DNA of 64,000 bases from the IMG/VR virus record IMGVR_UViG_3300050132_000248, positions 32,001 to 96,000 of that record; one strand, given 5' to 3'. Source of the DNA: a virus. The notes beneath the pieces were generated by a model. It had not been told where the DNA came from and made no database searches. It saw nothing but the letters and a program-made list of their open reading frames with translations. The position numbers and the translations under genes are program-made. The first letter of the stretch is position 1. The number at the start of each line of letters is the position of its first letter. This document shows positions 1-15,907 of the stretch, piece after piece.

Positions 1-73
1 AATCTACCTGGAATTTCAATACCTATTCTTGTAGCTACTCCAGAGATGTAATCAATTGTATATTTCATATTAG

Positions 74-328
74 TTAGTTTTTAATTCTTACACCAAACAT
101 CTGCCAATACCATTCAAAATTCTGTAATGCTTTATTCTTATTACATCTGAATGTTTTCATCATCAAGGAAACAGCATAGTCTTTAAAAATTATATACTGT
201 TCCCTTGTCATGGTAAAATGATAAAACCAACGATCATCATCAATTATATCTAATCTTGTCTTTCCTATGATATCCAATTCAAAGGTAAAAAGATGATCAC
301 CAATATTCTCTCTTTTAACTTTTTCCAT
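74..328 (-). CDS. hypothetical phage protein (84 aa)
   Basis: ORF track; co-directional and tightly packed with neighbouring minus-strand genes. Confidence 0.7.
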   Translation of the reverse strand: MEKVKRENIGDHLFTFELDIIGKTRLDIIDDDRWFYHFTMTREQYIIFKDYAVSLMMKTFRCNKNKALQNFEWYWQMFGVRIKN

Positions 329-501
329 TATTCAGAAGGATAAATATCATCATCAAATGCTTGTAAAAGAACTTTTGACAGATCCTTCACTTGAGTTCTT
401 GTAAGTTGAATGTAAGAAGATCCTTCATCATTAGTAATTGTAAGTTGTAACATTCTTCCATTCCCTTTTCTTCCAATTATTTCTTTTATATCTGTACTCA
501 T
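328..501 (-). CDS. small hypothetical protein (57 aa, MSTDIKEIIGRKGNGRMLQL...)
   Basis: Read manually (below track cut-off); fills the gap, and its TAA overlaps the ATG of 74..328. Confidence 0.65.
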   Translation of the reverse strand: MSTDIKEIIGRKGNGRMLQLTITNDEGSSYIQLTRTQVKDLSKVLLQAFDDDIYPSE

Positions 502-509
502 AACTTTAT

Positions 510-1010
510 TTATAAGTAAACATTATCAATTTCTCCATTTTCTATTTTCTGAAGAGTTTCGTTCATACGAACAAGATCTCTTTTACAAGACTCAATATTA
601 TGCTCAGTATCATCTATTTTGTTTTTTATAATATAGAGCATTCTATCTTTATCTCTTAGTGCAGTTTTTCGTTTAGCCCATACTGTATAACATCCATGTT
701 GATGAGATAGATTAAACAGATCATCATAGGAATAATATTCTGTCTCCCACTCTTTAATATATTCAACATCATCCAAATTACATTTAAAAGTAAGAGTTCC
801 TTGTTTCAATGCTTCTTCAAGTGTAAAAGTTCTGTTATCATTTTCTCCCCAATATGTATCAACTAGCATTAATCCATCTTTATAATCTTTTACCACAAGT
901 TGCCTATCAAAACAATGATAAGGTTCAAATCTCTTTTTTACTTCACTATCATTATATCTAAAGGAGTAGACATCATTAATTTTTAGCTGTATTTTCTGTT
1001 CTTCGTTCAT
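510..1010 (-). CDS. hypothetical phage protein with C-terminal coiled coil (166 aa)
   Basis: ORF track; directly downstream of the polymerase. Confidence 0.75.
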   Translation of the reverse strand: MNEEQKIQLKINDVYSFRYNDSEVKKRFEPYHCFDRQLVVKDYKDGLMLVDTYWGENDNRTFTLEEALKQGTLTFKCNLDDVEYIKEWETEYYSYDDLFNLSHQHGCYTVWAKRKTALRDKDRMLYIIKNKIDDTEHNIESCKRDLVRMNETLQKIENGEIDNVYL

Positions 1011-1020
1011 AATTTTTACT

Positions 1021-3012
1021 TTAAAAAAGTGAAAGTTGATTTGCTACTGTCTTATTATTTCTCTTTTTTCCTTGAAATTCTACCTTGAAGATGATATTAT
1101 TAGCTTTCTCAATGTAATATGAAAAGTTAATATCCGCATCTTTCACTTGTGTAGTTTTTGGAAGATAATTACAAATAGTCATAACCCACTCACCTGCTTC
1201 TACTTGTGATTTAGCTGCTGCATTAGTTGTGCAACTTGGATTCTTAATTTTATACACCTTCTCTCCATGGTTTGAAACATAATAACGAATAAGTTTGTTA
1301 TAAATATGTTTCTCTCCTGTGGAAAGGATTGTTCCTTCATAATGAAAATCACGAGAAGCTTTTTTCCTAATGCAGAAATCATAAATGTTTGTATGATTCT
1401 TGATTGTCTCTTCAACAGGGATGTTATTAACAAAATATTCCTTGAGAGTAATGGGAATAATTCTCATTGAACTATTCTTGTGCAGAAGTTTGTCAATCTC
1501 AAAATCTCCCTTTTCTTTGGTAGTTCCATCAAGTTTAAGAGCAAGATAATCATTAACAGATGTCTGAGCAATCCATTTAAACTCAGTATATTCAAAATTA
1601 CCAAGAATATCATTTCCAATTATCTTTTCCCATTCAGTTAGAATAGCTTTAAATTCTTCTTCTCTGGAGATTGATATGATTGTATCCCAGCCATCAGTGT
1701 TAATCGAGACAACATTAAAACCCTTCAGAACTAAATCCTCAACAATCATTAATATTTCCATCTGTCCACCAATAGTTACCTGAAGCATTCCGTAAGGATA
1801 TTCCTGAAAATCTCCTTTACTATTTAAACGACCAAAACATCCCCCATTGAGACTTAATTTTCCCATTTCCTGCATAGAGTTATATTTAGGATCTCCTGTC
1901 GCCTTTCCAAGTTTCTTATATTTTAATCGTCTATCAATTTTACTAACAATTAAACTATTCCATCCCGGGAGATGTGAAGGTTCAACTTTATACTTACGAA
2001 TTGCATTTGGATATTGGCTGCCTATATCGCAGGATATGTATTTTTCATCTTCTTTTGGTTGCAGGAATCTACCTACTTCATTACTGTGTGCACCACCTTT
2101 AGCAATAGTAACTATAAGCTTATTAGGAAATGTAAATTTGAATTCCTGTTGCTGGGCAAGAGCATAAGTATTGCCAAATTCTTTTACAAACTTCTTGAGT
2201 TCAGGAGTTTGATAACTTATCCATTTAGGAAAGAACTTCTTGAATGGTTTTCCATAGAATGTAATTATCTGCTTGGGTTTAATATCCTTCTCCAACTTTC
2301 TACTCATCTTCAAATAATCAAGCTTATTCCATTCAGCTCCTATTTTTACATCACTCCAATTAAGACATTTTAGACCAAATTCCTGTTCCATAATAAGTCT
2401 ATCTTCTATCTTATTCTTTCCTTTATATAGAGACATTTCTGTCTTACCAATAGTAATTTTATAGAACTGATAAGTAGCAAAGACATCATTGTGACAATAT
2501 TTAATAACATCATCCATTTGATCATCAGTCATTTCTTTCATCCAATGATCTATTGGCATTTCCTCAATATTTTCAAGACACATGGAAAATTCTAATGATT
2601 TTAATGAGGTACGAAGATTAAGATTTTCATATCCAGAGATTGTAAATAAATCAATCTGTTTGAAAGATAGATATTCTTCTCTATATTGAGGAAGTACACC
2701 ATAATTCCCATCATCAATTACATCTTGTGCCTTCTGATAGATTAGTCCCACTATTTCATCTACAGGGGTATCAATCCACTGTTCATGATTTCTGATTATC
2801 CATTCAATCACCTGACTGTCAAAATGTAAACCATTAAAAGAGATATAGTAGTAATCCTCATGTGTGTCTATGAACTTGATAAGACTATCAAGCTGATTCT
2901 TTCTCCTACTCACCTCAAAATCATAAGTCTTGTCTTCTATAGGATCATAAACACACACAAGGAACATACATCTAATGGTTTCAATGTCATAACATAAAAC
3001 CTTGTCTATCAT
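1021..3012 (-). CDS. polB: DNA polymerase family B with 3'-5' exonuclease domain (663 aa)
   Basis: ExoI YDIET, ExoII FNGLHFD, ExoIII YCHND; motif A SCDIGSQYP, motif B KLSLNG, motif C NTDG; C-terminal QLSLF. Confidence 0.93.
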   Translation of the reverse strand: MIDKVLCYDIETIRCMFLVCVYDPIEDKTYDFEVSRRKNQLDSLIKFIDTHEDYYYISFNGLHFDSQVIEWIIRNHEQWIDTPVDEIVGLIYQKAQDVIDDGNYGVLPQYREEYLSFKQIDLFTISGYENLNLRTSLKSLEFSMCLENIEEMPIDHWMKEMTDDQMDDVIKYCHNDVFATYQFYKITIGKTEMSLYKGKNKIEDRLIMEQEFGLKCLNWSDVKIGAEWNKLDYLKMSRKLEKDIKPKQIITFYGKPFKKFFPKWISYQTPELKKFVKEFGNTYALAQQQEFKFTFPNKLIVTIAKGGAHSNEVGRFLQPKEDEKYISCDIGSQYPNAIRKYKVEPSHLPGWNSLIVSKIDRRLKYKKLGKATGDPKYNSMQEMGKLSLNGGCFGRLNSKGDFQEYPYGMLQVTIGGQMEILMIVEDLVLKGFNVVSINTDGWDTIISISREEEFKAILTEWEKIIGNDILGNFEYTEFKWIAQTSVNDYLALKLDGTTKEKGDFEIDKLLHKNSSMRIIPITLKEYFVNNIPVEETIKNHTNIYDFCIRKKASRDFHYEGTILSTGEKHIYNKLIRYYVSNHGEKVYKIKNPSCTTNAAAKSQVEAGEWVMTICNYLPKTTQVKDADINFSYYIEKANNIIFKVEFQGKKRNNKTVANQLSLF

Positions 3013-3022
3013 TTAGTTAGTA

Positions 3023-3256
3023 TTATTTTGGTAAAATTGAGTTAAGAATATTAAAGTTTTCTTCATCATAATCACAACAGAACTTATTACCATCTACATA
3101 GAATATAATATCAGAAGATTTGTCTTCATCATTTCTGGCAATCCACCATCCAGATAGTTTATCAGGACGAAAGATGAATGTAGTATATTCATCATCTTGA
3201 GATATACCAAGATCTCTCAGTTCAGCATTCTCTATTGCTATTTCTATTTGACTCAT
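3023..3256 (-). CDS. hypothetical protein (77 aa)
   Basis: ORF track; ATGA overlap with the upstream gene. Confidence 0.7.
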   Translation of the reverse strand: MSQIEIAIENAELRDLGISQDDEYTTFIFRPDKLSGWWIARNDEDKSSDIIFYVDGNKFCCDYDEENFNILNSILPK

Positions 3257-3663
3257 TCTTCCTCCTCAATTAGTTTAATAATAATCTTTTCTTCATCATA
3301 AACAGGAATAATCATTTTTTCCTTTTCATAGAGTTTATCCTTGATTTGTATCATACAACGATGTTTGTTTGCAAGAATAATATTAATGTCATCAACAGTT
3401 ATTTCATGCATGTCTTCAGAATCTTCTCCTTCATCTACCCAAGCTATTTCTTCATGTTTAGCCAATAGTATTTCCAGAGATGTATCAAAGAGTTGTAACT
3501 CAACAGGATGTCCATTATTAAATATAAATGCATTCATGTCATAAATTTTATGATTCAACTCAAAAACCTCAACACTATCTTCTCCCTTTATGACAAATAA
3601 CATTCCTTGTTGTAATTTACGAGGACTGTAAGCAGTGAGTACTAATTCAGCAGTTATGTACAT
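3253..3663 (-). CDS. hypothetical acidic protein (136 aa)
   Basis: ORF track; GGAGG ribosome-binding site upstream. Confidence 0.75.
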   Translation of the reverse strand: MYITAELVLTAYSPRKLQQGMLFVIKGEDSVEVFELNHKIYDMNAFIFNNGHPVELQLFDTSLEILLAKHEEIAWVDEGEDSEDMHEITVDDINIILANKHRCMIQIKDKLYEKEKMIIPVYDEEKIIIKLIEEEE

Positions 3664-3895
3664 GGTTTTCCTCCGTTATTTCTTCATTCCACCATTCTTC
3701 AAAGATTAACTTTTCTCCTCTATCGTAAGGAGTATTTCTGTTTTTATACCAATCTATAGTTGCTCTTTTCCATGCCTGCCAAGCAGATTCCTTACAAAAT
3801 TCTTTAAGAGTTTGCATAGAAACATATCCTAAATTATCATTACCAGACATGTAATAAGGTTCAATATTTTCTAATATTTTTTCATATCTTTTCAT
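3647..3895 (-). CDS. hypothetical protein (about 82 aa, MKRYEK...)
   Basis: Track ORF 3647..3955; the later ATG at 3895 avoids overlap with 3906..4112. Confidence 0.6.
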   Translation of the reverse strand: MKRYEKILENIEPYYMSGNDNLGYVSMQTLKEFCKESAWQAWKRATIDWYKNRNTPYDRGEKLIFEEWWNEEITEENHVHNC

Positions 3896-3905
3896 ATCTC
3901 TGGAG

Positions 3906-4112
3906 TTATGTACATAATGCATTATGATTTGCAAGACACATTTCAATATACTCAATCAAATATTTAGCATAAGAACAAAGAATTTCCTGTCCACCAAATA
4001 TAAATATTCCTGTTCTATCTTTATGAAATTCATATTCCTGTTTCAACACAGATAGATATGCATTTGCTGCTTCTGGAGTAAGCGATTGCCCATTTATAAT
4101 AATATTTTTCAT
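3906..4112 (-). CDS. hypothetical protein (68 aa)
   Basis: ORF track; operon context. Confidence 0.65.
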   Translation of the reverse strand: MKNIIINGQSLTPEAANAYLSVLKQEYEFHKDRTGIFIFGGQEILCSYAKYLIEYIEMCLANHNALCT

Positions 4113-4133
4113 ACATCTCTGGAGTTTAAAATT

Positions 4134-4170
4134 AAAAAAAGAGTGAACAGAAACATTCTCTGCTCACTCT
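4134..4170 (-). terminator. intrinsic terminator
   Basis: Minus-strand stem AGAGUGAGCAG/CUGUUCACUCU (G-U pair only on the minus strand) followed by U7, just after the stop at 4185. Confidence 0.75.
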
Positions 4171-4184
4171 CAACATGAAAACAA

Positions 4185-4397
4185 CTATATATTGTCCTGA
4201 ATTAAACCAAAATGATCTATGCATTCCTGTTCACCTATTTCATCAAGTAGTTTATTATGATCAAAATGATGAACAATCTCTGATTCAGTAAAATGATCTA
4301 AAATTTCATCACCATCTACGTGTGAGATTTCTAAATCTACAGCATTAGTATTCCATGCTGTTATTTGAAGTGATTTGCACTTGATATTTATATCCAT
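4185..4397 (-). CDS. hypothetical acidic protein (about 70 aa, MDINIK...)
   Basis: Track ORF 4185..4481; start at 4397 abuts the upstream stop at 4399. Confidence 0.6.
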   Translation of the reverse strand: MDINIKCKSLQITAWNTNAVDLEISHVDGDEILDHFTESEIVHHFDHNKLLDEIGEQECIDHFGLIQDNI

Positions 4398-4398
4398 A

Positions 4399-4716
4399 TC
4401 ACTTTTTATTAAATTCTGATAGAAACTTTCCATCAGAAATAACAAGCTTTCCATTATAATAAGCTTTCTTAATTTTACCACAATTCACAGAGCCATCTCC
4501 TCTACATTCTTCAAATTGCTTGAGAATTATAAGAGCTTCATCCAAAGACATTACATCCTTGAAAGTATATGTTGTTCTGAAATCTTTGGATCCTTTTCCT
4601 GTCAAAGAGTCTTTTCTTGCAGGATTGTATAAATATACAACTACACGATGCATATTTGGAGAAATTAATTCTCCTTCTCCATGAATTTTACGATTTAATT
4701 TTGTCTTTGTTTCCAT
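4399..4716 (-). CDS. hypothetical protein (105 aa)
   Basis: ORF track. Confidence 0.7.
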   Translation of the reverse strand: METKTKLNRKIHGEGELISPNMHRVVVYLYNPARKDSLTGKGSKDFRTTYTFKDVMSLDEALIILKQFEECRGDGSVNCGKIKKAYYNGKLVISDGKFLSEFNKK

Positions 4717-4742
4717 CCTTAAATGATTTTGTATTAGTTTAA

Positions 4743-5390
4743 TTAATGTTTATAATTATATATCCAAAAAGAAGCTTGCCTTCCGCTATCGAAGCATATC
4801 CAACTTATAATAGCTTTCCCTGCGATAACGTACCACTTTCTATTGCTGTGAATATCAGCTAAATTAAATACTAATCCTCCTGTTAAGAATAGGTTTCTGC
4901 CCATTTGAATCCCATGATATTTGTCCGTTGTCCAGACAAGGAATGAAGTTGAACCCAGGAATTTAGCACCCTGTTTAGGATCGTGATTTTTGTATTTGTT
5001 AGTCCATGTCAGAGCAGGGTCACACCTATAAGCAGGACAGTTCCATAACTTTTCAAAACGTTGTGGTGAGTGATCTAATGTCTGCATAGATCCATCACTC
5101 AGACCACTAATGAACCACGAGGCACACCCCGCAATAAATAATGGTGTGATAATGGGCTTCTTTTCGATCTTCACTACTGCATACCGTTGGGAAAACTCCC
5201 TGCGGTCTCTGGTTATTATAGAATCAGGTAAAACACAATCACCGGGTCTTCCGTAATACAATTTTGCTGTATCTATTCCAGTTCCTTTTATTTGTGGAAA
5301 CATTCTGTATTTCCCTACTATTGAATCCTGTGAATGTCCTGTAATGCCAATCAATACGAATAGCATCATAATGCTTAAAATTGTTTTCAT
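4743..5390 (-). CDS. secreted/membrane protein with Sec signal peptide (215 aa)
   Basis: MKTILSIMMLFVLIGITGHS|QDSI signal peptide with Gln at +1; hydrophobic segments in the C-terminal half. Confidence 0.75.
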   Translation of the reverse strand: MKTILSIMMLFVLIGITGHSQDSIVGKYRMFPQIKGTGIDTAKLYYGRPGDCVLPDSIITRDRREFSQRYAVVKIEKKPIITPLFIAGCASWFISGLSDGSMQTLDHSPQRFEKLWNCPAYRCDPALTWTNKYKNHDPKQGAKFLGSTSFLVWTTDKYHGIQMGRNLFLTGGLVFNLADIHSNRKWYVIAGKAIISWICFDSGRQASFWIYNYKH

Positions 5391-5408
5391 TTTTTTGTTT
5401 TTAAAGGT

Positions 5409-5639
5409 TTATTTCTTTAGATATTCAATAAATTCATCAATATCTGCTACCTCTATCCACAATGTTGATCCTGAATGTCTTTGGTTAAAATACTGCATAA
5501 ACTTGACTAATCCATCTCTTGGTTCAACCTTTGAAGCATAAGCTACCATTAATCTCATAACTTCACTTATAGGAACAAATGAACCATCATGTTTGCATCC
5601 ATTTGTGAATTTTTTTGCATTATCAATCGTGTTTTCCAT
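5409..5639 (-). CDS. hypothetical protein (76 aa)
   Basis: ORF track. Confidence 0.65.
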   Translation of the reverse strand: MENTIDNAKKFTNGCKHDGSFVPISEVMRLMVAYASKVEPRDGLVKFMQYFNQRHSGSTLWIEVADIDEFIEYLKK

Positions 5640-5657
5640 ATCTCTTATTCCTTTCTG

Positions 5658-6350
<693 letters not shown>

Positions 6351-6371
6351 GTTTCCCTTTCTGTTATTTGG

Positions 6372-7499
6372 TTAATCCCCTGTGTGATTGCCGTAACAGG
6401 CATTTGTTCTCTCAAAATTGGTTTGTTCGTCTTCCTTTTCCCCCTTATCCTCAACATGTTGCACAACTCCATCCTTATCAGGATTCCCCCATTTCCTTTT
6501 CTTATTAACCTCCATTTTAGTCTTTGAAAATTCAACAAGATCATCAAATGTTAATTTGAATTGTGATGCTGTGTTTAACAGTAATATAAAACAATCCGCA
6601 AACTCAGATCCAATCTCATCTTTTGAATGTTCGTGAAATATTGCCTGTTTTAATTCCTCAACTTCTTTAAGCAAATGAATACAATGAGAAATTGGTGTTG
6701 CATTTGGAAAGGTTTTATTTCGCCATTCATCCCAATCTTCCATTAATTTTTGTATTTCCCCCTTATCCTTCACATTAACAGCGTCTTGTGCCGTTACCCA
6801 TTTTGCATGAGGTGAATATGGGTCAAGGAATGAGTTTTTACCCAAAGTTACAGGCTTATCCTCAATAGGCTTATTCAGCAATGTTAACTTGTCAGGATTG
6901 GTATTGCCTTCTAATAATGCTTTAAATGGCTTAACCAAAACACTTTCTGGCTTATCATTAATGTATTTTTCTGCATAAGCACGAACATCAATACCCCTTC
7001 CCTGTAATCCTTTTTCAAGAATTTTAACAATTTCAGTATATCCCATTAAGCCATAAAACATAGAATAAAGACCATCATTAACACCACTCATATAATCAAC
7101 TGAGCCTGAAAACTTGTCTTTAATTCTTTGAATGTACGGATCGGAAATGATGAATTTGCCTTTTTCGTATTTATCTTCATCACCTTCCTCCATAGGTAAG
7201 TTTTCTTTCTTATCCTCAACTCTGGATAGGAGATGGGATTGAAACTTTATATTGCTTTGAACCTGTCTATAAATCAAATTATCCCAAATCTCTGTATTTC
7301 CATATATATTTTCTATGAATGGATATTCTTTTATGACATATTCCCTTATCTCCTCCTCAGACATAGGAGAGGATTGATTGCGGTAGGATTCCATTGCTTG
7401 TAAGGTATCTTCATAAAGCATATACTTTTCATTCTTACCATTCAGATGAAGAGTAAATGTCTTGTATTTACCAGAAATAATTTCTTCTTTTGTTGTCAT
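6372..7499 (-). CDS. mosaic protein with C-terminal DUF550/MazG-like dATP/dGTP pyrophosphohydrolase domain (375 aa)
   Basis: WRNKTFP..HLLKEVEEL..EIGSEFADCFILL..KMEVNKKRKW matches the all-alpha NTP pyrophosphatase (DUF550-type) pattern. Confidence 0.7.
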   Translation of the reverse strand: MTTKEEIISGKYKTFTLHLNGKNEKYMLYEDTLQAMESYRNQSSPMSEEEIREYVIKEYPFIENIYGNTEIWDNLIYRQVQSNIKFQSHLLSRVEDKKENLPMEEGDEDKYEKGKFIISDPYIQRIKDKFSGSVDYMSGVNDGLYSMFYGLMGYTEIVKILEKGLQGRGIDVRAYAEKYINDKPESVLVKPFKALLEGNTNPDKLTLLNKPIEDKPVTLGKNSFLDPYSPHAKWVTAQDAVNVKDKGEIQKLMEDWDEWRNKTFPNATPISHCIHLLKEVEELKQAIFHEHSKDEIGSEFADCFILLLNTASQFKLTFDDLVEFSKTKMEVNKKRKWGNPDKDGVVQHVEDKGEKEDEQTNFERTNACYGNHTGD

Positions 7500-7572
7500 T
7501 TTGCTTGTTTTTATTGGTTTATATTTCGTGTCCTGAAAACTTTTCCCAGTCTTTTTCTTCCCCGAAGGGAGG

Positions 7573-7881
7573 TTAATTAATACTCAATGTCTTAACTTTA
7601 CTTTTATCTGGAGAATAACTGATGTGCGATAGATTTACACAGCATCCTGATTTGCCATTACGAGGTTTATAACCATCACACCACTTACCGCAAGGCTTAT
7701 CTTCTATATCATAGAAGGCCTCATATTCTCTGCACCAAAATACATCTCCGATTTTTTCAGGTATAGCAGGATGAAGTTTTACCTCTTTTACTTCTTCGTA
7801 ACTCAGAAACCACCTCCAATATTCAAGAGTATAACAATTTTCAGGATCGGATTCTTCTGCATTAAAATAGAGCTTCTTCAT
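7573..7881 (-). CDS. Cys-rich hypothetical protein (102 aa)
   Basis: ORF track; CGKWCDGYKPRNGKSGCC cluster. Confidence 0.7.
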   Translation of the reverse strand: MKKLYFNAEESDPENCYTLEYWRWFLSYEEVKEVKLHPAIPEKIGDVFWCREYEAFYDIEDKPCGKWCDGYKPRNGKSGCCVNLSHISYSPDKSKVKTLSIN

Positions 7882-8144
7882 TTTTTATGTTTTTTTGGAT
7901 AATAAAGTCCGTATGTTGTTGTATCGGCAGGCTGTATCTTGAAGTTTAAAGCCCCTCCGGTGATCTGTAATGCGTTTATCTTCTTTTGCTGGTACATTCT
8001 GTCGCCCAACTGGAGGGCATTGAGAAGAACACTTAAAATAAGAAATGTACCCAATGCCCAGTCTATTGCAATTTGAATTTTTAATTTTCGTTTATAATCA
8101 AAATTGGAGTCTATCATTATACTATTCTTTGCGAATTTTATCAA
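7878..8144 (-). CDS. single-pass membrane protein (88 aa)
   Basis: Hydrophobic WALGTFLILSVLLNAL segment. Confidence 0.65.
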   Translation of the reverse strand: MIKFAKNSIMIDSNFDYKRKLKIQIAIDWALGTFLILSVLLNALQLGDRMYQQKKINALQITGGALNFKIQPADTTTYGLYYPKKHKK

Positions 8145-8625
8145 GAATATTAGTATACAGAGTCATTAAATCAATTTCTGAGTCTATACTCTGAAGAGCC
8201 ATTACAGCAAGTGTCATGGCTTCGGCTTTCATATTAACTTTTTTATATTTTCCCTCTATAATAGCTGTTTGATTTCTACTGATGTTCAGCTTTTCTTCAA
8301 GATCATCCACCTGAGAAGACTTGATTATCCATTTTTGTTTCCATTCTTCAACTTTTTTTGTTGATGTTTCTATTTCATCAGAGAGAGTTTTAATAGCTTT
8401 CTCATTTTGAATGAATACATTATTCAACTGATTACACCATTTTTTAATTTCATCTTTTAGTTTATTAATGAGAATTTTTCTTCTGACATTCTTTGCCATT
8501 ATTATCCCCATCCATATGATATAGACAATAATAAAGAGAATAGAAAGTATAAATATCCAATTATGTACTGTTGTTGGCGTCTTTAACCATTGTATAATAT
8601 TGTTCCAAATATCTGTTGCATTCAT
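8122..8625 (-). CDS. membrane-anchored coiled-coil protein (167 aa)
   Basis: N-terminal TM (WIFILSILFIIVYIIWMGII) followed by heptad-like helix. Confidence 0.7.
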   Translation of the reverse strand: MNATDIWNNIIQWLKTPTTVHNWIFILSILFIIVYIIWMGIIMAKNVRRKILINKLKDEIKKWCNQLNNVFIQNEKAIKTLSDEIETSTKKVEEWKQKWIIKSSQVDDLEEKLNISRNQTAIIEGKYKKVNMKAEAMTLAVMALQSIDSEIDLMTLYTNILDKIRKE

Positions 8626-8643
8626 TTTTGTTTGTTTTAGATG

Positions 8644-8856
8644 TTATTTTTCATGTCCTGAGAATTTTTCCCAAGACTTTTCTTCCTTCAATGCTTTATT
8701 CTTTTCATCACTGAGAAGAAGTTTATCATTAAATTCCTTTTCACCTTCATATTCTTCCTCTTCTTCCACACCTGTATGTTCGTGGCATAAGGGACATAAA
8801 TCTGAATCAGGCCAATTAATCATTTCCTCAGCACAGCATTCTGAATAGTATTTCAT
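8644..8856 (-). CDS. small Zn-ribbon-like protein (about 70 aa, MKYYSECC...CPLCHEH)
   Basis: CC and CxxC motifs; ATGA overlap with 8853..9086 supports start at 8856. Confidence 0.6.
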   Translation of the reverse strand: MKYYSECCAEEMINWPDSDLCPLCHEHTGVEEEEEYEGEKEFNDKLLLSDEKNKALKEEKSWEKFSGHEK

Positions 8857-9086
8857 AGTAAACGATGATGAGTGATATGTTTCTCCCAAAGTGCTCTTAC
8901 TCTATCTACATCTTCTAATGATTTAGCAAATACAACTGTTTTTCCATCAGAAAGATAAACTGGTATTTTATTAGTGATATCTCCAGCAATACGTTGTTCG
9001 GGAGTGAGTTTATTTTGGATTAAATGATTAATAGCAGATCCTAATCCTTTGGCTGTCTTACGACTACTTACTCTTGGATGTCTCAT
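8853..9086 (-). CDS. hypothetical protein (77 aa)
   Basis: ORF track; overlapping stop/start. Confidence 0.7.
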   Translation of the reverse strand: MRHPRVSSRKTAKGLGSAINHLIQNKLTPEQRIAGDITNKIPVYLSDGKTVVFAKSLEDVDRVRALWEKHITHHRLL

Positions 9087-9307
9087 ATCTTTTTACTTTT
9101 TCCTGCAAGTTTACGATTATAACCACTCTGATCATACATCATCATTGATTTTTGAATCTCTAATGCTCCTATAATTTCCTGATAGTTTGGCTGAAAACCT
9201 TTCTCAAGACTATTTACATTAATAGTTTGACAGTTCTCACCCACTGTTATAACAATTTCAAATTTCTGTTTGTTGAAATCTGGTTTCATTAGTTTATTTA
9301 AACTCAT
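9083..9307 (-). CDS. hypothetical protein (74 aa)
   Basis: ORF track; AAGGAGG upstream. Confidence 0.75.
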   Translation of the reverse strand: MSLNKLMKPDFNKQKFEIVITVGENCQTINVNSLEKGFQPNYQEIIGALEIQKSMMMYDQSGYNRKLAGKSKKI

Positions 9308-9329
9308 AATATTCCTCCTTAAGTTTTAT

Positions 9330-9381
9330 AAGGGAAAAGATTCCAAAATTACTAATAATTTCAATTAGAATCTTCTCCCTT
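9330..9381 (-). other. intergenic RNA stem-loop (14-bp stem)
   Basis: AAGGGAGAAGAUUC/GAAUCUUUUCCCUU; fully paired only on the minus strand (G-U). Confidence 0.65.
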
Positions 9382-9405
9382 CAAATTTAATAATGGTTTT
9401 CATAC

Positions 9406-9576
9406 TTATACTCCTTCCTCAAGTTTGAAGATGATTCTTTCTGTTAATGATACTTCAGGATTTACAAGTTTTTCTGTTCTTACAATTCTTGCTGCCTGAC
9501 GAATTAATGATTCTTGATTGCCTGCTGCTCTCAGCTTCTTGTTAATGACAAGAGTTTTCATTATTACTGTTTTCAT
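9406..9576 (-). CDS. small basic protein (56 aa, MKTVIMKTLVINKK...)
   Basis: Read manually; fills the gap. Confidence 0.6.
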   Translation of the reverse strand: MKTVIMKTLVINKKLRAAGNQESLIRQAARIVRTEKLVNPEVSLTERIIFKLEEGV

Positions 9577-9606
9577 GTTTTTGCTTTTTTAGTTGTTTAC
9601 TTATAA

Positions 9607-9822
9607 TTATTGTTTTTTAACATTGTTCCACCATATTTCAAATTCCCCTCGATGAAAGCTTAATAAGGAAGCTTGTCTGCAGAGAACCTTCACCTCTTCT
9701 TCAGAATAGAAGAATTTCTTTGCATGTTTGGCATTGTGCTCAGAGAGCATTTCATGAACTCCTTCAATAAGAGTGACATCTTTATCAGAGACATCACTCT
9801 TAACAGATTTGGGTGTTATCAT
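9607..9822 (-). CDS. hypothetical protein (71 aa)
   Basis: ORF track; GGAGGTGA upstream. Confidence 0.7.
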   Translation of the reverse strand: MITPKSVKSDVSDKDVTLIEGVHEMLSEHNAKHAKKFFYSEEEVKVLCRQASLLSFHRGEFEIWWNNVKKQ

Positions 9823-9923
9823 TTTCTCACCTCCAAATATCCATTTTTCATTCTGAGCATCATCTCATCAATTTTACGAATTAGCTGTTCAACAGCTTTT
9901 TCTAATTTGATTTGTTCTTTCAT
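9819..9923 (-). CDS. small protein (34 aa, MKEQIKLEKAVEQLIRK...)
   Basis: Read manually; AGGAGG upstream, ATGA overlap downstream. Confidence 0.55.
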   Translation of the reverse strand: MKEQIKLEKAVEQLIRKIDEMMLRMKNGYLEVRK

Positions 9924-10144
9924 TATTTTGTCCTCCTATTTGATTTGTAAATTGTGTTTTTAGAAGCTTTTTCCCATTTGCTTGTTTCAGGAAATGAGTT
10001 ATACATATGATTGATTTGAATTCTATGAACAGGAGCAAAATATGATTTATATTTGCTCTTAGAAGAATGATGATGACGTGGAGCTGGAAAAGCTGGTTCA
10101 CATCCCCATAGAAAAATGAGTATGATAATTAATAGTGTTTTCAT
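9923..10144 (-). CDS. putative small lipoprotein (73 aa)
   Basis: MKTLLIIILIFLWG|C lipobox-like; AAGGAG upstream. Confidence 0.6.
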   Translation of the reverse strand: MKTLLIIILIFLWGCEPAFPAPRHHHSSKSKYKSYFAPVHRIQINHMYNSFPETSKWEKASKNTIYKSNRRTK

Positions 10145-10187
10145 TATTATTCTCCTTATTAGTTAAGATTTAATTGATAATGCTATA

Positions 10188-10523
10188 TTACTTGCTGAAT
10201 TTCTTTTCCCAAAGAGCAATAGCATCTTTGACATTTTTGATTCTTGAGTCATAATCATCATCCTCATACCAAGCATACTTTGCATCTGTAGGACGTTGCT
10301 TTGCCAATTCTGGTAGAAATAGCAAATGACTATTACAACCATGTATGAAGAATCTATTACCCTTCAATATATCATGTTCTATAATAACACACATGAAACA
10401 AAACTCGTTGTCTCTTTTGGCAATTTTCAATTCTTTCAATAATTCCCTGTATATGAGAATTCTGTATTTAGGAAGAATGATTCCTTTCCTGAATTTGACA
10501 TTCTTTAATTCTGTGTTTTTCAT
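10188..10523 (-). CDS. hypothetical protein (111 aa)
   Basis: ORF track. Confidence 0.7.
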   Translation of the reverse strand: MKNTELKNVKFRKGIILPKYRILIYRELLKELKIAKRDNEFCFMCVIIEHDILKGNRFFIHGCNSHLLFLPELAKQRPTDAKYAWYEDDDYDSRIKNVKDAIALWEKKFSK

Positions 10524-10646
10524 GTTATTTTCTCTTTAAAGTTTTAATTTATAAATAGTTGTAACAAGAGGAATAGTTGAAATTCCATCAAAGACTTTCT
10601 ACTTCGATTATCTTTAGCACTCCCGTTGTGCTATCTTGTTAAAAAA

Positions 10647-10736
10647 CAAACTCTCACAAGGTTGTAATCCTTGATAGTAAATAACTTTTAGTTCTCTACT
10701 ACTCAAATAAGATCGTTCAATTTGAATGAGAGTTTG
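10647..10736 (-). ncRNA. tRNA-like structured element, copy 1
   Basis: 10-bp closing stem CAAACUCUCA/UGAGAGUUUG with adjacent 5-bp CAAGG/CCUUG hairpin; related to 14561..14684. Confidence 0.5.
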
Positions 10737-10743
10737 ATATTGA

Positions 10744-10905
10744 TTAACTTTCTATCAAATAGTTATTGAATTCATCTTCATCTCCTTCAACAGAACAAAT
10801 AGTATCCTTTTGTCCTATTCCATGGAGTAATAAATATAACAGCCAGAACTCAAGAATAAGAGCAAAGGTTGATAAAATTGGATGATTGCTTACAAGTGTT
10901 TCCAT
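10744..10905 (-). CDS. small membrane protein (53 aa)
   Basis: Read manually (METLVSNHPILSTFALILEFWLLYLLLH...); AGGAGG upstream. Confidence 0.6.
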   Translation of the reverse strand: METLVSNHPILSTFALILEFWLLYLLLHGIGQKDTICSVEGDEDEFNNYLIES

Positions 10906-10923
10906 AATTTTCCTCCTAAAAGT

Positions 10924-11493
10924 TTATTTGTATTTTAAAGCTCTTTTTGCTATGATTATTAATTTTTTAGTAGTTACAGCAGCAGCATCAGCAGCAGCAG
11001 CATCAGCAGCAGCAGCATAAGCAGCATCAGCAGCATAAGCAGCAGCATAAGCAGCAACAGCAGCATTAGCAGCAGCATAAGCAGCAGCATCAGATCTATC
11101 TTTATCACTCAACCAATCATTTGCCCATTTATTCCATTTCTTGTCTTTATAAACTAATTTTCCCATAAGAATGGCAAAAGCAACTCTTTGATTAGTAGTA
11201 AGTTTTGGAAGTTTTATTCTCTTAATAATAGTCATATGAGTATACGCTTCCTTTAATTTATCTGATTTTGACTCTCCACTTACTTCACACTCATAAAGTC
11301 TTGGATTCTTAATATTAGCATGTATAGGATTTAGTAAAACAGCTAATAATGGATGTGAATAACAATGTAACCACCCATCTGAGCACATTTCTCCTATACC
11401 AGAAGTTGTTACTTCTTTATTTAGTTTCCATTGAAAGTCATTATGTGTTGTTAATGACTGTGTTGTAAGTTTATATCTAATTATAGGTTTCAT
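10924..11493 (-). CDS. phage protein with C-terminal Ala-rich (AAYAAD) repeat (189 aa)
   Basis: N-terminal CSDGWLHCYSHPLLA domain; same Ala repeat type as 5658..6350; GGAGG upstream. Confidence 0.8.
   Translation of the reverse strand: MKPIIRYKLTTQSLTTHNDFQWKLNKEVTTSGIGEMCSDGWLHCYSHPLLAVLLNPIHANIKNPRLYECEVSGESKSDKLKEAYTHMTIIKRIKLPKLTTNQRVAFAILMGKLVYKDKKWNKWANDWLSDKDRSDAAAYAAANAAVAAYAAAYAADAAYAAAADAAAADAAAVTTKKLIIIAKRALKYK
10977..11093. repeat. (GCA)n tract, second copy of the Ala-repeat type
   Basis: Directly visible. Confidence 0.9.
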
Positions 11494-11519
11494 AATTTTC
11501 CTCCGTAAAGTTTAAATTA

Positions 11520-11774
11520 TTAATTTTCAGTTAGTTCTATTGTGCCTTTAAATGGTGTGTAAAATTGTGAACTCCATCCTTCTGCATATAGTCCTATATC
11601 TGTTGGAGCACCACTGTTTACAACACAGGTTCCTGCTAATTTAGAATCAGAATTTTCTGTACAAAGTACAATAAGAAAATCCTCATCATCAGTCTTAGAG
11701 AAAGTGTAAAGCTTTCCTTTTTGAAATTTTTGGCAGCTTTTATTATATTTTGATGAGATAACTTTTGATTTCAT
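11520..11774 (-). CDS. hypothetical protein (84 aa), paralogue of 13051..13308
   Basis: Shared MKS-I-S..KxQxGKxY..LIxLCT..W..G-IEL-E pattern. Confidence 0.75.
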   Translation of the reverse strand: MKSKVISSKYNKSCQKFQKGKLYTFSKTDDEDFLIVLCTENSDSKLAGTCVVNSGAPTDIGLYAEGWSSQFYTPFKGTIELTEN

Positions 11775-11794
11775 AATTATTCCTCTTTAAATTG

Positions 11795-12166
11795 TTAATA
11801 GTTAATAACATTTCTTATTTTAACCCATTGCCAATTATCTGGATAGGTCCCTATTGGATCATCATTAGGAAGTCCATTGATGGTGTCCTGAATGAAAGCT
11901 CTCCAATGTGTGTCAAAAGTTGGTTGTCCATTTGCTGAAGGACAATTGATTGAATCATAAGGCAATAGTTGGATTTTTGTGCAGCCTTCATCTAATTGAA
12001 ATACTACATGTCTATTGCCTGAATTGACAAACCATATATTCCAAGTCATTAACTCAGAATTGTTTATCTTATTTGTGCAGCCAGAGAAGAGCAATGCAAA
12101 TATTATCAATACAATGAGTGCAATCCAACAAGCAATATTTTCCGCTTTGTTGTAAGTTGTTTTCAT
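11795..12166 (-). CDS. putative lipoprotein (123 aa)
   Basis: Hydrophobic stretch ending LLFSG|C; AGGAGG upstream. Confidence 0.65.
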   Translation of the reverse strand: MKTTYNKAENIACWIALIVLIIFALLFSGCTNKINNSELMTWNIWFVNSGNRHVVFQLDEGCTKIQLLPYDSINCPSANGQPTFDTHWRAFIQDTINGLPNDDPIGTYPDNWQWVKIRNVINY

Positions 12167-12187
12167 GATAGTCCTCCTAAAGGATGA

Positions 12188-12352
12188 TTAATGTGAAAGC
12201 CAATAGAGCCATCCCCACATAAGACAGATAACAGCTACAATAATGACATCAAGCCAATGACTTTCATTCATATTTATAACACGATTAATCTCCATTTCAA
12301 TATATCCTATAGAAAGGAATAAAGAAAATACAAATACGATAGTTGGTAGCAT
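12188..12352 (-). CDS. small two-TM membrane protein (54 aa)
   Basis: Read manually: MLPTIVFVFSLFLSIGY...VIIVAVICLMWGWLYWLSH. Confidence 0.55.
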   Translation of the reverse strand: MLPTIVFVFSLFLSIGYIEMEINRVINMNESHWLDVIIVAVICLMWGWLYWLSH

Positions 12353-12356
12353 AGTT

Positions 12357-12530
12357 TTAAAAATTAGGATTGAATGAATAATTAACCTTATAACTCTGAA
12401 ATTCAGTAGTTACACCTACAGAATCACAAGGAAAATTAAGAAATGGTGTGAGAAAATACTTTCTCTGTCTTCCTGAATAAGCAAGATCATAGCCATATTT
12501 TCTTGCAATGTTGAATAGTTTCTTTTTCAT
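12357..12530 (-). CDS. small hypothetical protein (57 aa, MKKKLFNIARKYG...)
   Basis: Read manually; fills the gap. Confidence 0.55.
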   Translation of the reverse strand: MKKKLFNIARKYGYDLAYSGRQRKYFLTPFLNFPCDSVGVTTEFQSYKVNYSFNPNF

Positions 12531-12573
12531 AATATTAGTTTAAATTGTTAATAATCAATCATATATCAAAAGG

Positions 12574-12657
12574 AATGTGTAAAAATGAGAGAAGACAAAA
12601 TACAAAACACATTGTTCAACATAATACAAAATGTCTTCTCTCATAAATTTACACATT
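12574..12657. repeat. long intergenic inverted repeat (about 23-bp stem with internal loop)
   Basis: AATGTGTAAA-A-ATGAGAGAAGACA ... TGTCTTCTCTCAT-AAA-TTTACACATT. Confidence 0.85.
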
Positions 12658-12698
12658 GGTGTCATTCTGCACTACCTTCATTTCACTAATTCATTTAA

Positions 12699-13031
12699 TC
12701 AAAAGAACTCTTCACAATCACAATTTATATACAATAAATCATGATGGAAAGTAGGAGCATGTTCTGGGTAACATCCTTCATGAATTCTACAAAAATCTTT
12801 TGCCCATTCAAAAGCTTCAAATGTCCATTCTTTATTACAGTTTGGAAGAGGAATTTTAATATATCTTTTTTCTATTTCAATATCCCGTCCACAAATTCTT
12901 GAACCAAGAGCATCTACAGCATCAGATAGAGAAGGTTTTCTCTTCTGTTTGAATTTAATACATTCAAGAGTTGAATGTTCTTTGTCAATTTCATAACCAT
13001 CAGGTGCAATGATTTTAATTTCTTTTTCCAT
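12699..13031 (-). CDS. hypothetical phage protein (110 aa, MEKEIKIIAPDGYEIDKE...)
   Basis: ORF track. Confidence 0.75.
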   Translation of the reverse strand: MEKEIKIIAPDGYEIDKEHSTLECIKFKQKRKPSLSDAVDALGSRICGRDIEIEKRYIKIPLPNCNKEWTFEAFEWAKDFCRIHEGCYPEHAPTFHHDLLYINCDCEEFF

Positions 13032-13050
13032 TTTGTTTAGTTTTAAGACG

Positions 13051-13308
13051 TTATTCTGTTTCTAATTCAATTTTTCCTGTCCAAAGTTCTGGTGTAGATC
13101 CCCAACCCATTGAAAAATAACCCACAATATAATTTTCCTCATTCTCATTTTTCCTAATGACATTGATTATGACTCCTATTAATGATTCATGATCTATTGT
13201 ACATAGAATAATGAGTTTATTACCATTTATATTCCACAAATAGCACTTCCCTCTTTGATATTTGGAAGGATTGGAATTAGTTGTTGTTGATAAAATTGTT
13301 GATTTCAT
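13051..13308 (-). CDS. hypothetical protein (85 aa), paralogue of 11520..11774
   Basis: ORF track; visible similarity. Confidence 0.7.
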   Translation of the reverse strand: MKSTILSTTTNSNPSKYQRGKCYLWNINGNKLIILCTIDHESLIGVIINVIRKNENEENYIVGYFSMGWGSTPELWTGKIELETE

Positions 13309-13562
13309 AATAGATTGATTAAGTTTAACTTATAAATATATTGAGTTTTATTGTTGTATTGATAAATATCAACGATATCAATGACAAATATCAATCAAAC
13401 CATTGATATATATCAATGGACTAATTGACAACTCTCATTAAATTATTGATATATCTCATTCTCAATTCCTTGTGTATGTCAAAAATTTCACCGACCTTTG
13501 CCAGCAGTGAGCGGAGTGGAATAAAGCGAACACCGCTTATCTAAAAGCTGAAGGAACAGTCT

Positions 13563-13808
13563 CTAACTATAATACTCCCGAGATAGGAATCCAACACTCT
13601 TCAAATAGAATCTTTTATTATGAGTTCTTGACAACATTGTACGAGGTTTACCATTTTTCTTGAGCCTATCTCTTATTGGATTACCACCTATTGTGTTTCT
13701 CCAGCCAAACAACTTTCTATTGGCTTCCATGGAGCTTGAAAACTCACCAATATATTCTCCATCCTCCCAATAAGCTATAACACGAATAGAATTATCAATT
13801 TCTTTCAT
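13563..13808 (-). CDS. NUMOD1-like small DNA-binding protein (81 aa)
   Basis: VIAYWEDGEYIGEFSSSMEANRKL resembles the NUMOD1 motif; basic C-terminus; no nuclease domain. Confidence 0.5.
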   Translation of the reverse strand: MKEIDNSIRVIAYWEDGEYIGEFSSSMEANRKLFGWRNTIGGNPIRDRLKKNGKPRTMLSRTHNKRFYLKSVGFLSREYYS

Positions 13809-13914
13809 ATATCCTCCAATTGATTAAATTGATTAACAATAAGCTGCTGAACAGCCACTAATAATACTCTTATATCTAAAGGAATAGAACAACTCTATTC
13901 TCATAATAATCAAC

Positions 13915-14055
13915 TCATTCATTATCACAAATGCCCAAAACAAGAACAAGAGCAATAACACAAATCACTGCCCAGACACTATGCCATATAAACTCATAGA
14001 ACACAATACCTATAATAGAGAGTATTAATAAGAATAACCATTTACTTTTAGACAT
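13915..14055 (-). CDS. small membrane protein (46 aa)
   Basis: Read manually: MSKSKWLFLLILSIIGIVFYEFIWHSVWAVICVIALVLVLGICDNE; AAGGAGG upstream. Confidence 0.6.
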   Translation of the reverse strand: MSKSKWLFLLILSIIGIVFYEFIWHSVWAVICVIALVLVLGICDNE

Positions 14056-14210
14056 ATGTATTCCTCCTTATTTGTCAATATAAAGCCATATTAAACTCAA
14101 CATGATTGATTATTGTGTTTGGAATGAGTAAGTTTTTTACTCAATGTGGATACATCCACATCAATTATTCTCACTCAAACACATTGATAATCAATAATTT
14201 ATAACAATCA

Positions 14211-14390
14211 TTAGAGATGTGAATGATTCACTCTGTATATCCACATTCTCTTATAAATTGTTCTCTTGTTAGAGAGCTTTTTATACCTTAATAGGTATTG
14301 ATACTTCATCCACTTCTCCATTTTACAGGCAAATTTTAATGTTGGATAGGCTTTAAAGTCTCCATTTATAGGATTTATGACTATTATCAT
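14211..14390 (-). CDS. small basic protein (59 aa, MIIVINPINGDFKAYPTLKFAC...)
   Basis: Read manually; immediately downstream of a TAnnTTTG promoter element. Confidence 0.5.
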   Translation of the reverse strand: MIIVINPINGDFKAYPTLKFACKMEKWMKYQYLLRYKKLSNKRTIYKRMWIYRVNHSHL

Positions 14391-14405
14391 GGTAGAAATT
14401 TCTTA

Positions 14406-14413
14406 CAAAGATA
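14406..14413 (-). promoter_or_regulatory. Bacteroidota-type -7 promoter element TATCTTTG (early arm)
   Basis: Exact TAnnTTTG on the minus strand in a non-coding region. Confidence 0.55.
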
Positions 14414-14560
14414 CATTAAAGTGACGTTTTCTCTGCATATAGTATCAACTATTTCTCTATTTAGAATGAGTAAGCATTAGTGATACTTAAGTGTACACCT
14501 TACTTATATAGAGAAATAATCAAAACATTATTCTTTATTCCTCTCTATATAGAAAGAATA

Positions 14561-14684
14561 AAAGACTCTCACAAGGTTGCACCTTGACTAACTAGAATGC
14601 AAAATATTCTGCACAAGATTAGTTTCAGCCATATGGCTTATTACCAGAGCTATTAGTTATCCTTGCAATTGGATGAGAGTCTTT
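14561..14684 (-). ncRNA. tRNA-like structured element, copy 2
   Basis: 11-bp closing stem AAAGACUCUCA/UGAGAGUCUUU, D-like hairpin AUCC/GGAU, UAACUA/UAGUUA arm with inserted hairpins, CAAGG-UGCAA-CCUUG hairpin. Confidence 0.55.
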
Positions 14685-14867
14685 GTGCTCCTGCAAACAT
14701 CACTGCTCACAGAAGCGTTAATACATAGCATACAAATCAAATGTTAGAACAACAAAGACGTGCTACAAAATATTGTAATTCAAATGATTATTCTTATTCT
14801 CTATATATGGAACAACTAAGAGTAGATGTGTTACAATTATAAGCCCACCCACACCGCCCAATATATA

Positions 14868-14900
14868 AGAAAAAGAAAAGGGGGAATTTCTTCCCCCTTC
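14868..14900 (-). terminator. intrinsic terminator after 14903..15247
   Basis: AAGGGGGAA/TTCCCCCTT 9-bp stem with U-rich tail on the minus strand. Confidence 0.75.
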
Positions 14901-14902
14901 TA

Positions 14903-15247
14903 TTAGCCAATTGCGTTTTCAAGATCAACAACACCAATCTTCACATTTTCCACTGTGATGGCGTCATAGGTTATCTGATGTTTCTTTTGAGCAATAGCTC
15001 TGTTCCAGGTCAGGTGATTAGCCAGGCTCCAACCTTCATCAGTTACAGTGATAAGGACTGATTTAACATTTCCGTCGGCAAAGTCCTTGTTGAAACCATC
15101 ATCTTCGTGAACTGCAAATGCCTCATCTCCAAAGGCGTAAATGCGGTATTTCTTACCTGCGAAGCCTTCAGTTGTTGATTTGTAATCCCTTACGAGGTTA
15201 GTCCTTTTGATCATCAGGACATCTTCCCCTTCAAGTTTTCTTTCCAT
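14903..15247 (-). CDS. first gene of the left arm, hypothetical (114 aa)
   Basis: ORF track; own terminator; visibly more C-ending codons than its neighbours. Confidence 0.8.
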   Translation of the reverse strand: MERKLEGEDVLMIKRTNLVRDYKSTTEGFAGKKYRIYAFGDEAFAVHEDDGFNKDFADGNVKSVLITVTDEGWSLANHLTWNRAIAQKKHQITYDAITVENVKIGVVDLENAIG

Positions 15248-15289
15248 TGTTTAAAGTTTTAAAATTGTTTTTAGATTAGTTTTAGTGAC

Positions 15290-15301
15290 GGGGGTACCCC
15301 C
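15290..15301. other. perfect GC palindrome GGGGGTACCCCC at the strand-switch point
   Basis: Directly visible; related GGGGGTCCCC at 15441..15450. Confidence 0.9.
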
Positions 15302-15474
15302 AACCACGCTAACCCAAGGTGGGGTTGTTGTTGGCAGTGAACTACTCTCATTATCACATACTTAATTTTCAATTCCAAAAAATTAATAGTAATTTAGACC
15401 CAAGGGGGGATGTTCACAGTCCCACAAAATTTAGAAATTTGGGGGTCCCCACTCTATTTTTAAAAAATAAAATC

Positions 15475-15526
15475 TAACTATTTTAGTTAAACCCTATTGA
15501 CATTTCATGAAATATGTTTATCTTTG
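15475..15526 (+). promoter_or_regulatory. palindromic operator TAACTA-N3-TAGTTA plus -33/-7 promoter (ATTG...TATCTTTG) of the structural arm
   Basis: Operator 15475..15489, ATTG 15496..15499, TAnnTTTG 15519..15526, first ATG 15557. Confidence 0.65.
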
Positions 15527-15556
15527 TGTCGGAAATTGAGAATGAACTAACTACAT

Positions 15557-15907
15557 ATGGAAATGATTGTTCAAAGATTGAAAAAAGAGAATGAAGACTC
15601 TCAACAACTTGCTGAGAGGTATTATGAAATCCTGTCTTCATTGAATTCGCTTAGTCTTACTAAGAGAGAAATTCAACTGGTTGCTTATACAGCTATACAT
15701 GGAAATATTTCCTATCCTCATCTCAAGGAGGAATTTTGTATAAGGTATAAAACGTCTATTCAGACAATTTATAATATGGTGTCAAGGCTGATGAAGCTCA
15801 AGGTGATGGTGAAGAACAATGGAAATATAAAAGTGAATCCTGTTCTTGTTTTAAAATTTGATGAAACAATCGTAATGCAAATTTCTCTTATATATGGAAT
15901 TAGATAA
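15557..15907 (+). CDS. putative winged-helix DNA-binding protein (116 aa)
   Basis: LTKREIQLVAY...SIQTIYNMVSRLMKLKVMVKNNGNIKV resembles HTH plus wing. Confidence 0.5.
   Translation: MEMIVQRLKKENEDSQQLAERYYEILSSLNSLSLTKREIQLVAYTAIHGNISYPHLKEEFCIRYKTSIQTIYNMVSRLMKLKVMVKNNGNIKVNPVLVLKFDETIVMQISLIYGIR

Follow-up and report, generated by a model that had tools for sequence, protein, structure and literature searches.

A family of pseudoknotted RNA elements in environmental crAss-like phages

Two elements in the leftward arm of a crAss-like phage genome

CrAss-like phages are among the most abundant phages, and their earliest gene expression is largely obscure; in phi14:2, the virion RNA polymerase could not be assigned a promoter motif (bioRxiv 10.1101/2020.03.07.982082). 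The subject of this analysis is a small structured RNA element that is present twice in a stretch of 64,000 nucleotides (nts), hereafter the window, which comprises bases 32001–96000 of the 117,331-bp IMG/VR virus record IMGVR_UViG_3300050132_000248. The source phage is crAss-like, from peat and permafrost. Its genome encodes a crAss-type major capsid and a P22-like portal, and near-identical DNA occurs in peat and permafrost metagenomes of several studies, two of these DNA runs covering the stretch. Two divergent genome arms meet at about 15250–15550. Both copies of the element, termed A (10647..10736) and B (14561..14684), are situated on the minus strand of the leftward arm, among small open reading frames (ORFs) without any family match. 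A covariance model derived from their relatives (R1, a home-made model whose E-values are rough) recovers exactly these two copies from the window's own genome.

Element B, 124 nts long and scoring 62.5 bits with R1, is an intact, typical member of the family and exemplifies its short-loop subtype. Read 5′ to 3′ on the minus strand, it opens with the 5′ strand of the closing helix P1 (14674..14684), whose core at 14674–14681 is extended to 11 bp. This is followed by an unpaired UCCAA junction that is invariant in the family (14669..14673), and by the pseudoknot 5′ strand UUGCA (14664..14668), which is complementary to loop nucleotides 14577–14581, a pairing backed by covariation in the family. 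A variable insert with two or three predicted hairpins (14587..14663) then leads to hairpin P3 (14572..14586), in which a CAAGG/CCUUG stem presents the loop UGCAA, which supplies the pseudoknot 3′ strand. The element is completed by the P1 3′ strand (14561..14571), behind which lies a U-rich tail (14551..14560). B sits about 570 nts from the arm divergence point, behind the first gene of the leftward arm (14903–15247) and that gene's terminator, a canonical, G+C-rich intrinsic terminator on the minus strand at 14876..14901, some 190 nts upstream of B. RNA contigs of two peat metatranscriptome studies cover the first gene and both end at 14906, where DNA contigs continue, a weak hint that transcripts stop there. 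On the other side of B, further nested inverted repeats occur 3′ of the element at 14105–14560, for instance an imperfect hairpin at about 14529–14559.

Element A, of 90 nts and 58 bits, begins 7 nts past the stop codon of a 53-aa ORF. Its P1 is formed by 10727..10736 and 10647..10656, the 8-bp core (10727–10734 on the 5′ side) being extended to 10 bp. Its P3 (10657..10673) has the same CAAGG and CCUUG strands, around the loop AUUACAA, and abuts the P1 3′ strand; a run of six U at 10641..10646, directly after P1, forms a terminator-like tail. A is without most of the conserved UCCAA...GCAGG junction block, and is a diverged, junction-degenerate copy.

The original prediction, made from the window alone, had named A and B as twin tRNA-like structured elements of an undescribed phage RNA family, and much of its description stands. 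Positions and strand are as proposed. The two copies share the 5′ block ACUCUCAU(U/C)CAA and a 3′ block consisting of the 5-bp hairpin followed directly by UGAGAGU, so that the hairpin is set on the 3′ strand of the closing helix with no spacer in either copy. The closing stems differ yet remain complementary, the extension being CAA/UUG in A and AAG/CUU in B. Both elements fold, with z-scores of −4.2 and −3.2 against shuffles; the opposite strand folds about equally well, and folding energy alone consequently does not give the strand. The likeness of A and B is not a chance one, since the exact 12-mer at their 3′ ends is found at these two sites of the window and nowhere else in the 117-kb genome, with about 0.01 such matches expected. 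Looser matches to it (up to two mismatches) occur at chance level only. Three aspects go beyond what had been described: the pseudoknot, the U-tract that lies behind each copy, and how large the family is.

Fold, covariation and distribution of the family

The consensus fold is compact and is closed by an 8-bp P1. From the 5′ side, P1 is succeeded by the unpaired UCCAA, by (UU)GCAG plus a G and a U or A, by the insert, by P3 and finally by the 3′ strand of P1. P3 consists of 5 bp capped by a loop that is 7 nts long in about 95% of the copies, and 5 nts long in the subtype that includes B; in the main architecture it abuts the P1 3′ strand without a spacer. The junction strand (UU)GCAG pairs through 4–6 nts with the P3 loop, creating an H-type pseudoknot. 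Junction and loop together hold about 30 near-invariant letters of the core, and in the main subtype a C-N-A sequence follows P1 (C in 79%, A in 72%).

All three helices are backed by compensatory changes. Across an alignment of 110 copies, 97.5% of cells are paired and 11 of the 19 pairs have changed on both sides, figures to be read in the light of an alignment fitted to the model, which favors P1 and P3 while the pseudoknot lies outside the model. None of 500 shuffles reaches the observed values, and slid controls fall to about 35% paired. Covariation is seen in seven of the eight pairs of P1, which occurs in at least 10 complementary versions, and in two pairs of P3. In the pseudoknot, the pair between columns 22 and 264 is C-G in 100 copies and U-A in four. 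A targeted scan for junction variants added seven intact copies bearing the U, of which four have an A in the loop and three a wobble partner; in none is the pair broken. The original expectation of an undescribed phage noncoding RNA family with covarying stems is hence borne out, the covariance-model search having returned many covarying homologues and the Rfam search no match.

The module reads as RNA on the strand of the genes. Intact copies contain about 16 G-U pairs versus about two real A-C mismatches, and 102 of the 110 copies are oriented in the same direction as the flanking ORFs. The flanks carry no conserved letters past about 3 nts, and an intron, whose removal would join two frames, was rejected, as the flanks are closed in all frames at 25 loci. 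The G-U excess, the co-orientation with ORFs, the bare flanks and the uninterrupted frames together argue for a discrete RNA module on the gene strand, as opposed to a promoter-linked site or one acting at the level of DNA. Five variants (L131, L134, L135, L169, and L178) have two extra hairpins between P3 and the P1 3′ strand. In these, the 3′ strand can pair with the usually unpaired UCCAA to give an 11-bp extended P1, then five U, which may constitute an alternative terminator-like state.

The most variable part is the insert between the pseudoknot strand and P3, which ranges from 1 to about 150 nts and is itself structured. Two insert types are each shared by several contigs, where they follow different versions of P1 and have compensatory changes in their own hairpins. 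At the other extreme, one genome contains a 44-nt copy with almost no insert, from which it follows that the conserved core can stand alone. The insert is therefore not filler, and the core behaves like a handle for different structured payloads. One insert, at L006:9029–9155, includes a hairpin whose stem (GUGG/CCAC) and loop (UUCAAAU) have the canonical sequence of a tRNA T arm, giving the impression of a tRNA fragment grafted into the scaffold.

Family counts are lower bounds, taken among the matches listed in two scans of viral contigs, one with the 3′ motif and one with the hairpin alone. The former located at least 118 loci, about 45 of those listed having the full architecture; the latter added copies with different closing helices. 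Model R1 recovers at least 110 copies in at least 95 IMG/VR viral contigs, with one to four copies per carrier genome. A crAss capsid gene was present in all 10 carrier contigs tested, and these capsids fall into two very different score classes, indicating that the family spans distant crAss-like lineages. The motif has three occurrences in 185,579 bacterial and archaeal genomes, each on a contig of a metagenome-assembled genome (MAG). One of these contigs, which measures 117,852 bp and had been binned into a Chitinophagaceae MAG, resembles a phage genome, and all three are probably mis-binned phage DNA. The 4.5-kb region and a minimal copy, used as BLAST queries against 50,697 GenBank phages, gave no match. 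Rfam 15 has nothing in the window at gathering threshold and nothing over the elements at E ≤10, and nothing on family copies in 11 related loci at E ≤1. Literature searches by motif letters and by topic located no description of the element. It thus represents an RNA family specific to environmental, uncultured crAss-like phages and absent from the RNA catalogues.

Genomic setting and possible function

Family copies are located in gene-free gaps or between small ORFs of the same strand, often just past the point where the genome arms diverge, and in several relatives a copy lies 28–60 nts ahead of a start codon. U-tracts, which stand behind both window copies, are found at about 16 of the 110 copies overall. 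A second structured element recurs nearby: in 30 of 95 loci, a twister-like module lies 0–570 nts downstream on the same strand, composed of a U-AA site, a hairpin that covaries and has a CCCAAGG-type loop, a variable arm and, on the 3′ side, a GAGGG block. These parts agree with those of a twister ribozyme (PMC6154101). Examples are L098:2170–2210 (minus), L074:1609–1649, and L198:11191–11230, and at two loci the predicted cut site of the module falls within about 5 nts of P1. The Rfam twister models, run on related loci at E ≤1, miss this module. It is absent from the window, whose two copies instead have U-rich tails behind an extended P1. Neither an informative Pfam match nor an informative PHROG match was obtained for neighbor proteins, Ro60 (TROVE) is absent in five carriers, and no fixed promoter or other flank motif is discernible across the family flanks.

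Our preferred interpretation, which we hold at somewhat less than even confidence, is that the element forms a self-contained RNA domain, pseudoknotted and part of early transcripts, in which a conserved handle is combined with variable payload hairpins, and which in the window phage also forms a 3′ end via its U-tract. The element would be transcribed on the gene strand, in the early, leftward arm of small genes. Its core would act as the conserved handle, conferring stability, binding a conserved partner, or both, and would carry payload hairpins specific to each lineage. Such an element would tend to sit near the 3′ end of a noncoding or intercistronic segment of early RNA. That end might be made in the window phage by the copy's own U-tract, with P1 serving as terminator stem, and in many relatives by the downstream twister-like ribozyme. 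The nearest biological parallel is found in phi14:2, also crAss-like, which produces abundant and persistent early noncoding RNAs from long intergenic regions (bioRxiv 10.1101/2020.03.07.982082). There, as in the window, noncoding stretches are interspersed with the phage's first small genes. R1 detects no copy of the element in phi14:2 positions 1–12000, where its best match, with filters off, has an E-value of 0.38 and no conserved core.

Several observations weigh against this proposal. In most members P1 is followed directly by neither a U-tract nor a ribozyme, so the 3′-end part applies to a minority only. Sequence conservation in the helices is unusually high, which could reflect recent spread, or an enzyme that recognizes the letters themselves. 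There is no consistently adjacent protein family, the largest neighbor cluster being present at 25 of 95 loci and none having a useful Pfam match. B is situated behind a strong intrinsic terminator and hence needs read-through or another promoter, and A, missing most of the junction, may be decaying. Two peat metatranscriptome runs, compared with positions 10000–15600, yielded no RNA contig over A or B, a result that is uninformative either way, as these runs offer contigs only, with sparse cover, and small structured RNAs are usually lost.

The resemblance to tRNA invites a different explanation, in which the P1–P3 stack imitates the acceptor/T-arm stack and the loop–junction pairing imitates the elbow between T and D loops. 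In that case the RNA would be cut or matured by RNase P, RNase Z or the CCA-adding enzyme of the host, and early transcripts would be punctuated or a stable small RNA freed. The tRNA likeness, supported only in part, is one of topology: in most copies an 8-bp and a 5-bp helix stack coaxially without a spacer, much as the 7-bp acceptor and 5-bp T stems do in tRNA, the loop usually has 7 nts and pairs with the 5′ junction, and the variable region occupies the place of the anticodon domain. Also congruent with tRNA mimicry are a U after the seventh base pair, the C-N-A found in the main subtype where tRNA has CCA, the discrete module boundaries, and the precedent of tRNA-shaped, noncoding phage RNAs, since T4 rnaC and rnaD, P1 C4 RNA and P4 CI RNA are matured by RNase P. 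In other respects the likeness fails. ARAGORN calls no tRNA, and the Rfam tRNA model RF00005 matches neither the elements (E ≤10) nor the copies in 11 related loci (E ≤1), in line with the original view that these are not standard tRNAs. The loops GUUGCAA, UGCAA, and AUUACAA do not conform to the T-loop consensus UUCRANY, the loop of B and its subtype is 5 nts long, and the two added hairpins of the five variants described above break the stack. The outermost P1 pair covaries, so that P1 has a full 8 bp and does not consist of 7 bp with a discriminator. An anticodon arm is absent, as is a 7-nt anticodon loop at a fixed place, and the 3′ tails are U-rich in the window, without the C-N-A of relatives or a CCA. 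A tRNA identity was rejected on these grounds; so was linkage to tRNA genes, as only 21 of 95 loci have any tRNA, at a distance of kilobases. A tRNA mimic is unlikely, and the functions once suggested, RNase P/Z processing signals or decoys against anticodon nucleases, receive no support from the evidence here, the latter lacking an anticodon arm to offer.

Terminators, ribozymes and DNA sites were weighed in the same manner. A new class of self-cleaving ribozyme, or a helper or obligate partner of the neighboring one, would cut the early transcript into pieces, an explanation we regard as improbable. The compact 44-nt core with its near-invariant junction and loop, the pseudoknot, the optional variable arm, the few copies per phage between small phage genes and the frequent adjacency to the twister-like module all speak for it, and hatchet, pistol and twister-sister were themselves discovered through nearness to ribozymes. 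The junction UCCAAGC also resembles the twister L4 loop. The element is nonetheless no twister. A closing helix is common to it and the twister models (RF03160, RF02684, RF03154), as are a hairpin loop that takes part in long-range pairing and an optional variable arm. These models do not match the elements at E ≤10. Twister possesses stems P1, P2, and P4, internal loops L1 and L2, and two pseudoknots, T1 and T2, formed from loop L4 (PMC6154101), whereas the element has one pseudoknot and neither internal loop, its P3 abuts P1 and leaves no room for P2, and the 44-nt copy cannot hold a twister core. No other known class fits, the sequence-conserved helices are unusual for ribozymes, a cleavage site cannot be named, and the window phage has no ribozyme partner. 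Orphan RNAs of the RAGATH type and ribozyme-punctuated phage operons are comparable in being small, conserved, pseudoknotted motifs between small phage genes, here just upstream of the twister-like module in many loci; the element differs in matching no such Rfam family and in having no ribozyme nearby in the window. Most RNAs found beside ribozymes have proved not to cleave. It is similarly doubtful, with a low probability of its own, that together with a downstream twister-like ribozyme or terminator such an element would excise small RNAs with variable payloads from the first crAss-like transcripts. Just as improbable is cis-acting control of transcription or translation, whether by an intrinsic terminator of unusual, branched form, by a put-like antitermination RNA, or by a leader through which the following gene is insulated or gated. 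The 10-bp stem and six U of A and the 11-bp stem and U-rich tail of B fit this explanation, as do the closeness of A to the preceding stop codon and of several relatives to the next start codon, and the usual position early in the operon. Against it, a terminator scan calls neither element, whose stems enclose 70–100 nts of branched RNA, U-rich tails are too rare for a terminator to be the family-wide identity, the spacing to the next gene is not fixed, and the invariant junction, the pseudoknot and the conserved payload would all be unnecessary in an ordinary terminator. Phage T7 early mRNA has intercistronic RNase III sites, and these too are repeated folded elements between early genes, as intrinsic terminators may be; P1 is too short for RNase III, however, and junction and pseudoknot would be superfluous for either role. 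Very remote, lastly, is a DNA-level function, whether as a single-stranded DNA (ssDNA) hairpin that serves the virion RNA polymerase as a promoter, as a site of replication or recombination, or as a miniature mobile element with inverted ends. The inverted-repeat ends with a variable interior and the identical inserts behind different flanks are suggestive of it, and the crAss virion polymerase transcribes ssDNA in vitro and has no known early promoter motif (bioRxiv 10.1101/2020.03.07.982082). The pseudoknot nevertheless covaries, G-U pairs are strand-specific (though G-T would also pair in ssDNA), and nearly all copies are co-oriented with genes. A miniature inverted-repeat mobile element in particular was rejected: interiors differ within and between genomes, each genome has only one to four copies, and the absence of common letters just outside P1 gives no sign of a target-site duplication, for which no direct search was made.

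Whichever of these roles applies, the element is a sharply defined, strongly covarying, phage-specific RNA module, shared by crAss lineages with distant capsids and missing from Rfam. It can be tested concretely for ribozyme activity, for cleavage by RNase P, or for binding of a conserved partner, and a core as small as 44 nts that accepts interchangeable structured inserts is of interest as a natural RNA scaffold.

Other features of the source genome

The phage genome also encodes an RtcB-type RNA ligase on the minus strand (G000:C1:28486–29670; Pfam PF01139, 151 bits), 2.3–3.5 kb to the left of the window start, which may be an RNA-repair or counter-defense gene. RtcB was not found in four other carriers of the element and occurs only in the window's own genome, so it is not linked to the RNA family and, like Ro60 and the neighboring proteins, points to no partner of the element. 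ARAGORN detects no tRNA genes in the window or in the whole 117-kb genome, yet some other carriers have tRNA arrays (14 tRNAs in L092). A weak Rfam match to isrG on the minus strand at 10994–11076 corresponds to a GCTGCT-type coding repeat inside the ORF 10924–11493 (Pfam DUF7666), and is not an RNA gene. Between the two elements, the contig of a related permafrost strain skips 462 bases at window positions 12569–13032, which deletes a 110-aa ORF (12699–13031), and the same strain bears a 10-base insertion behind position 14176.

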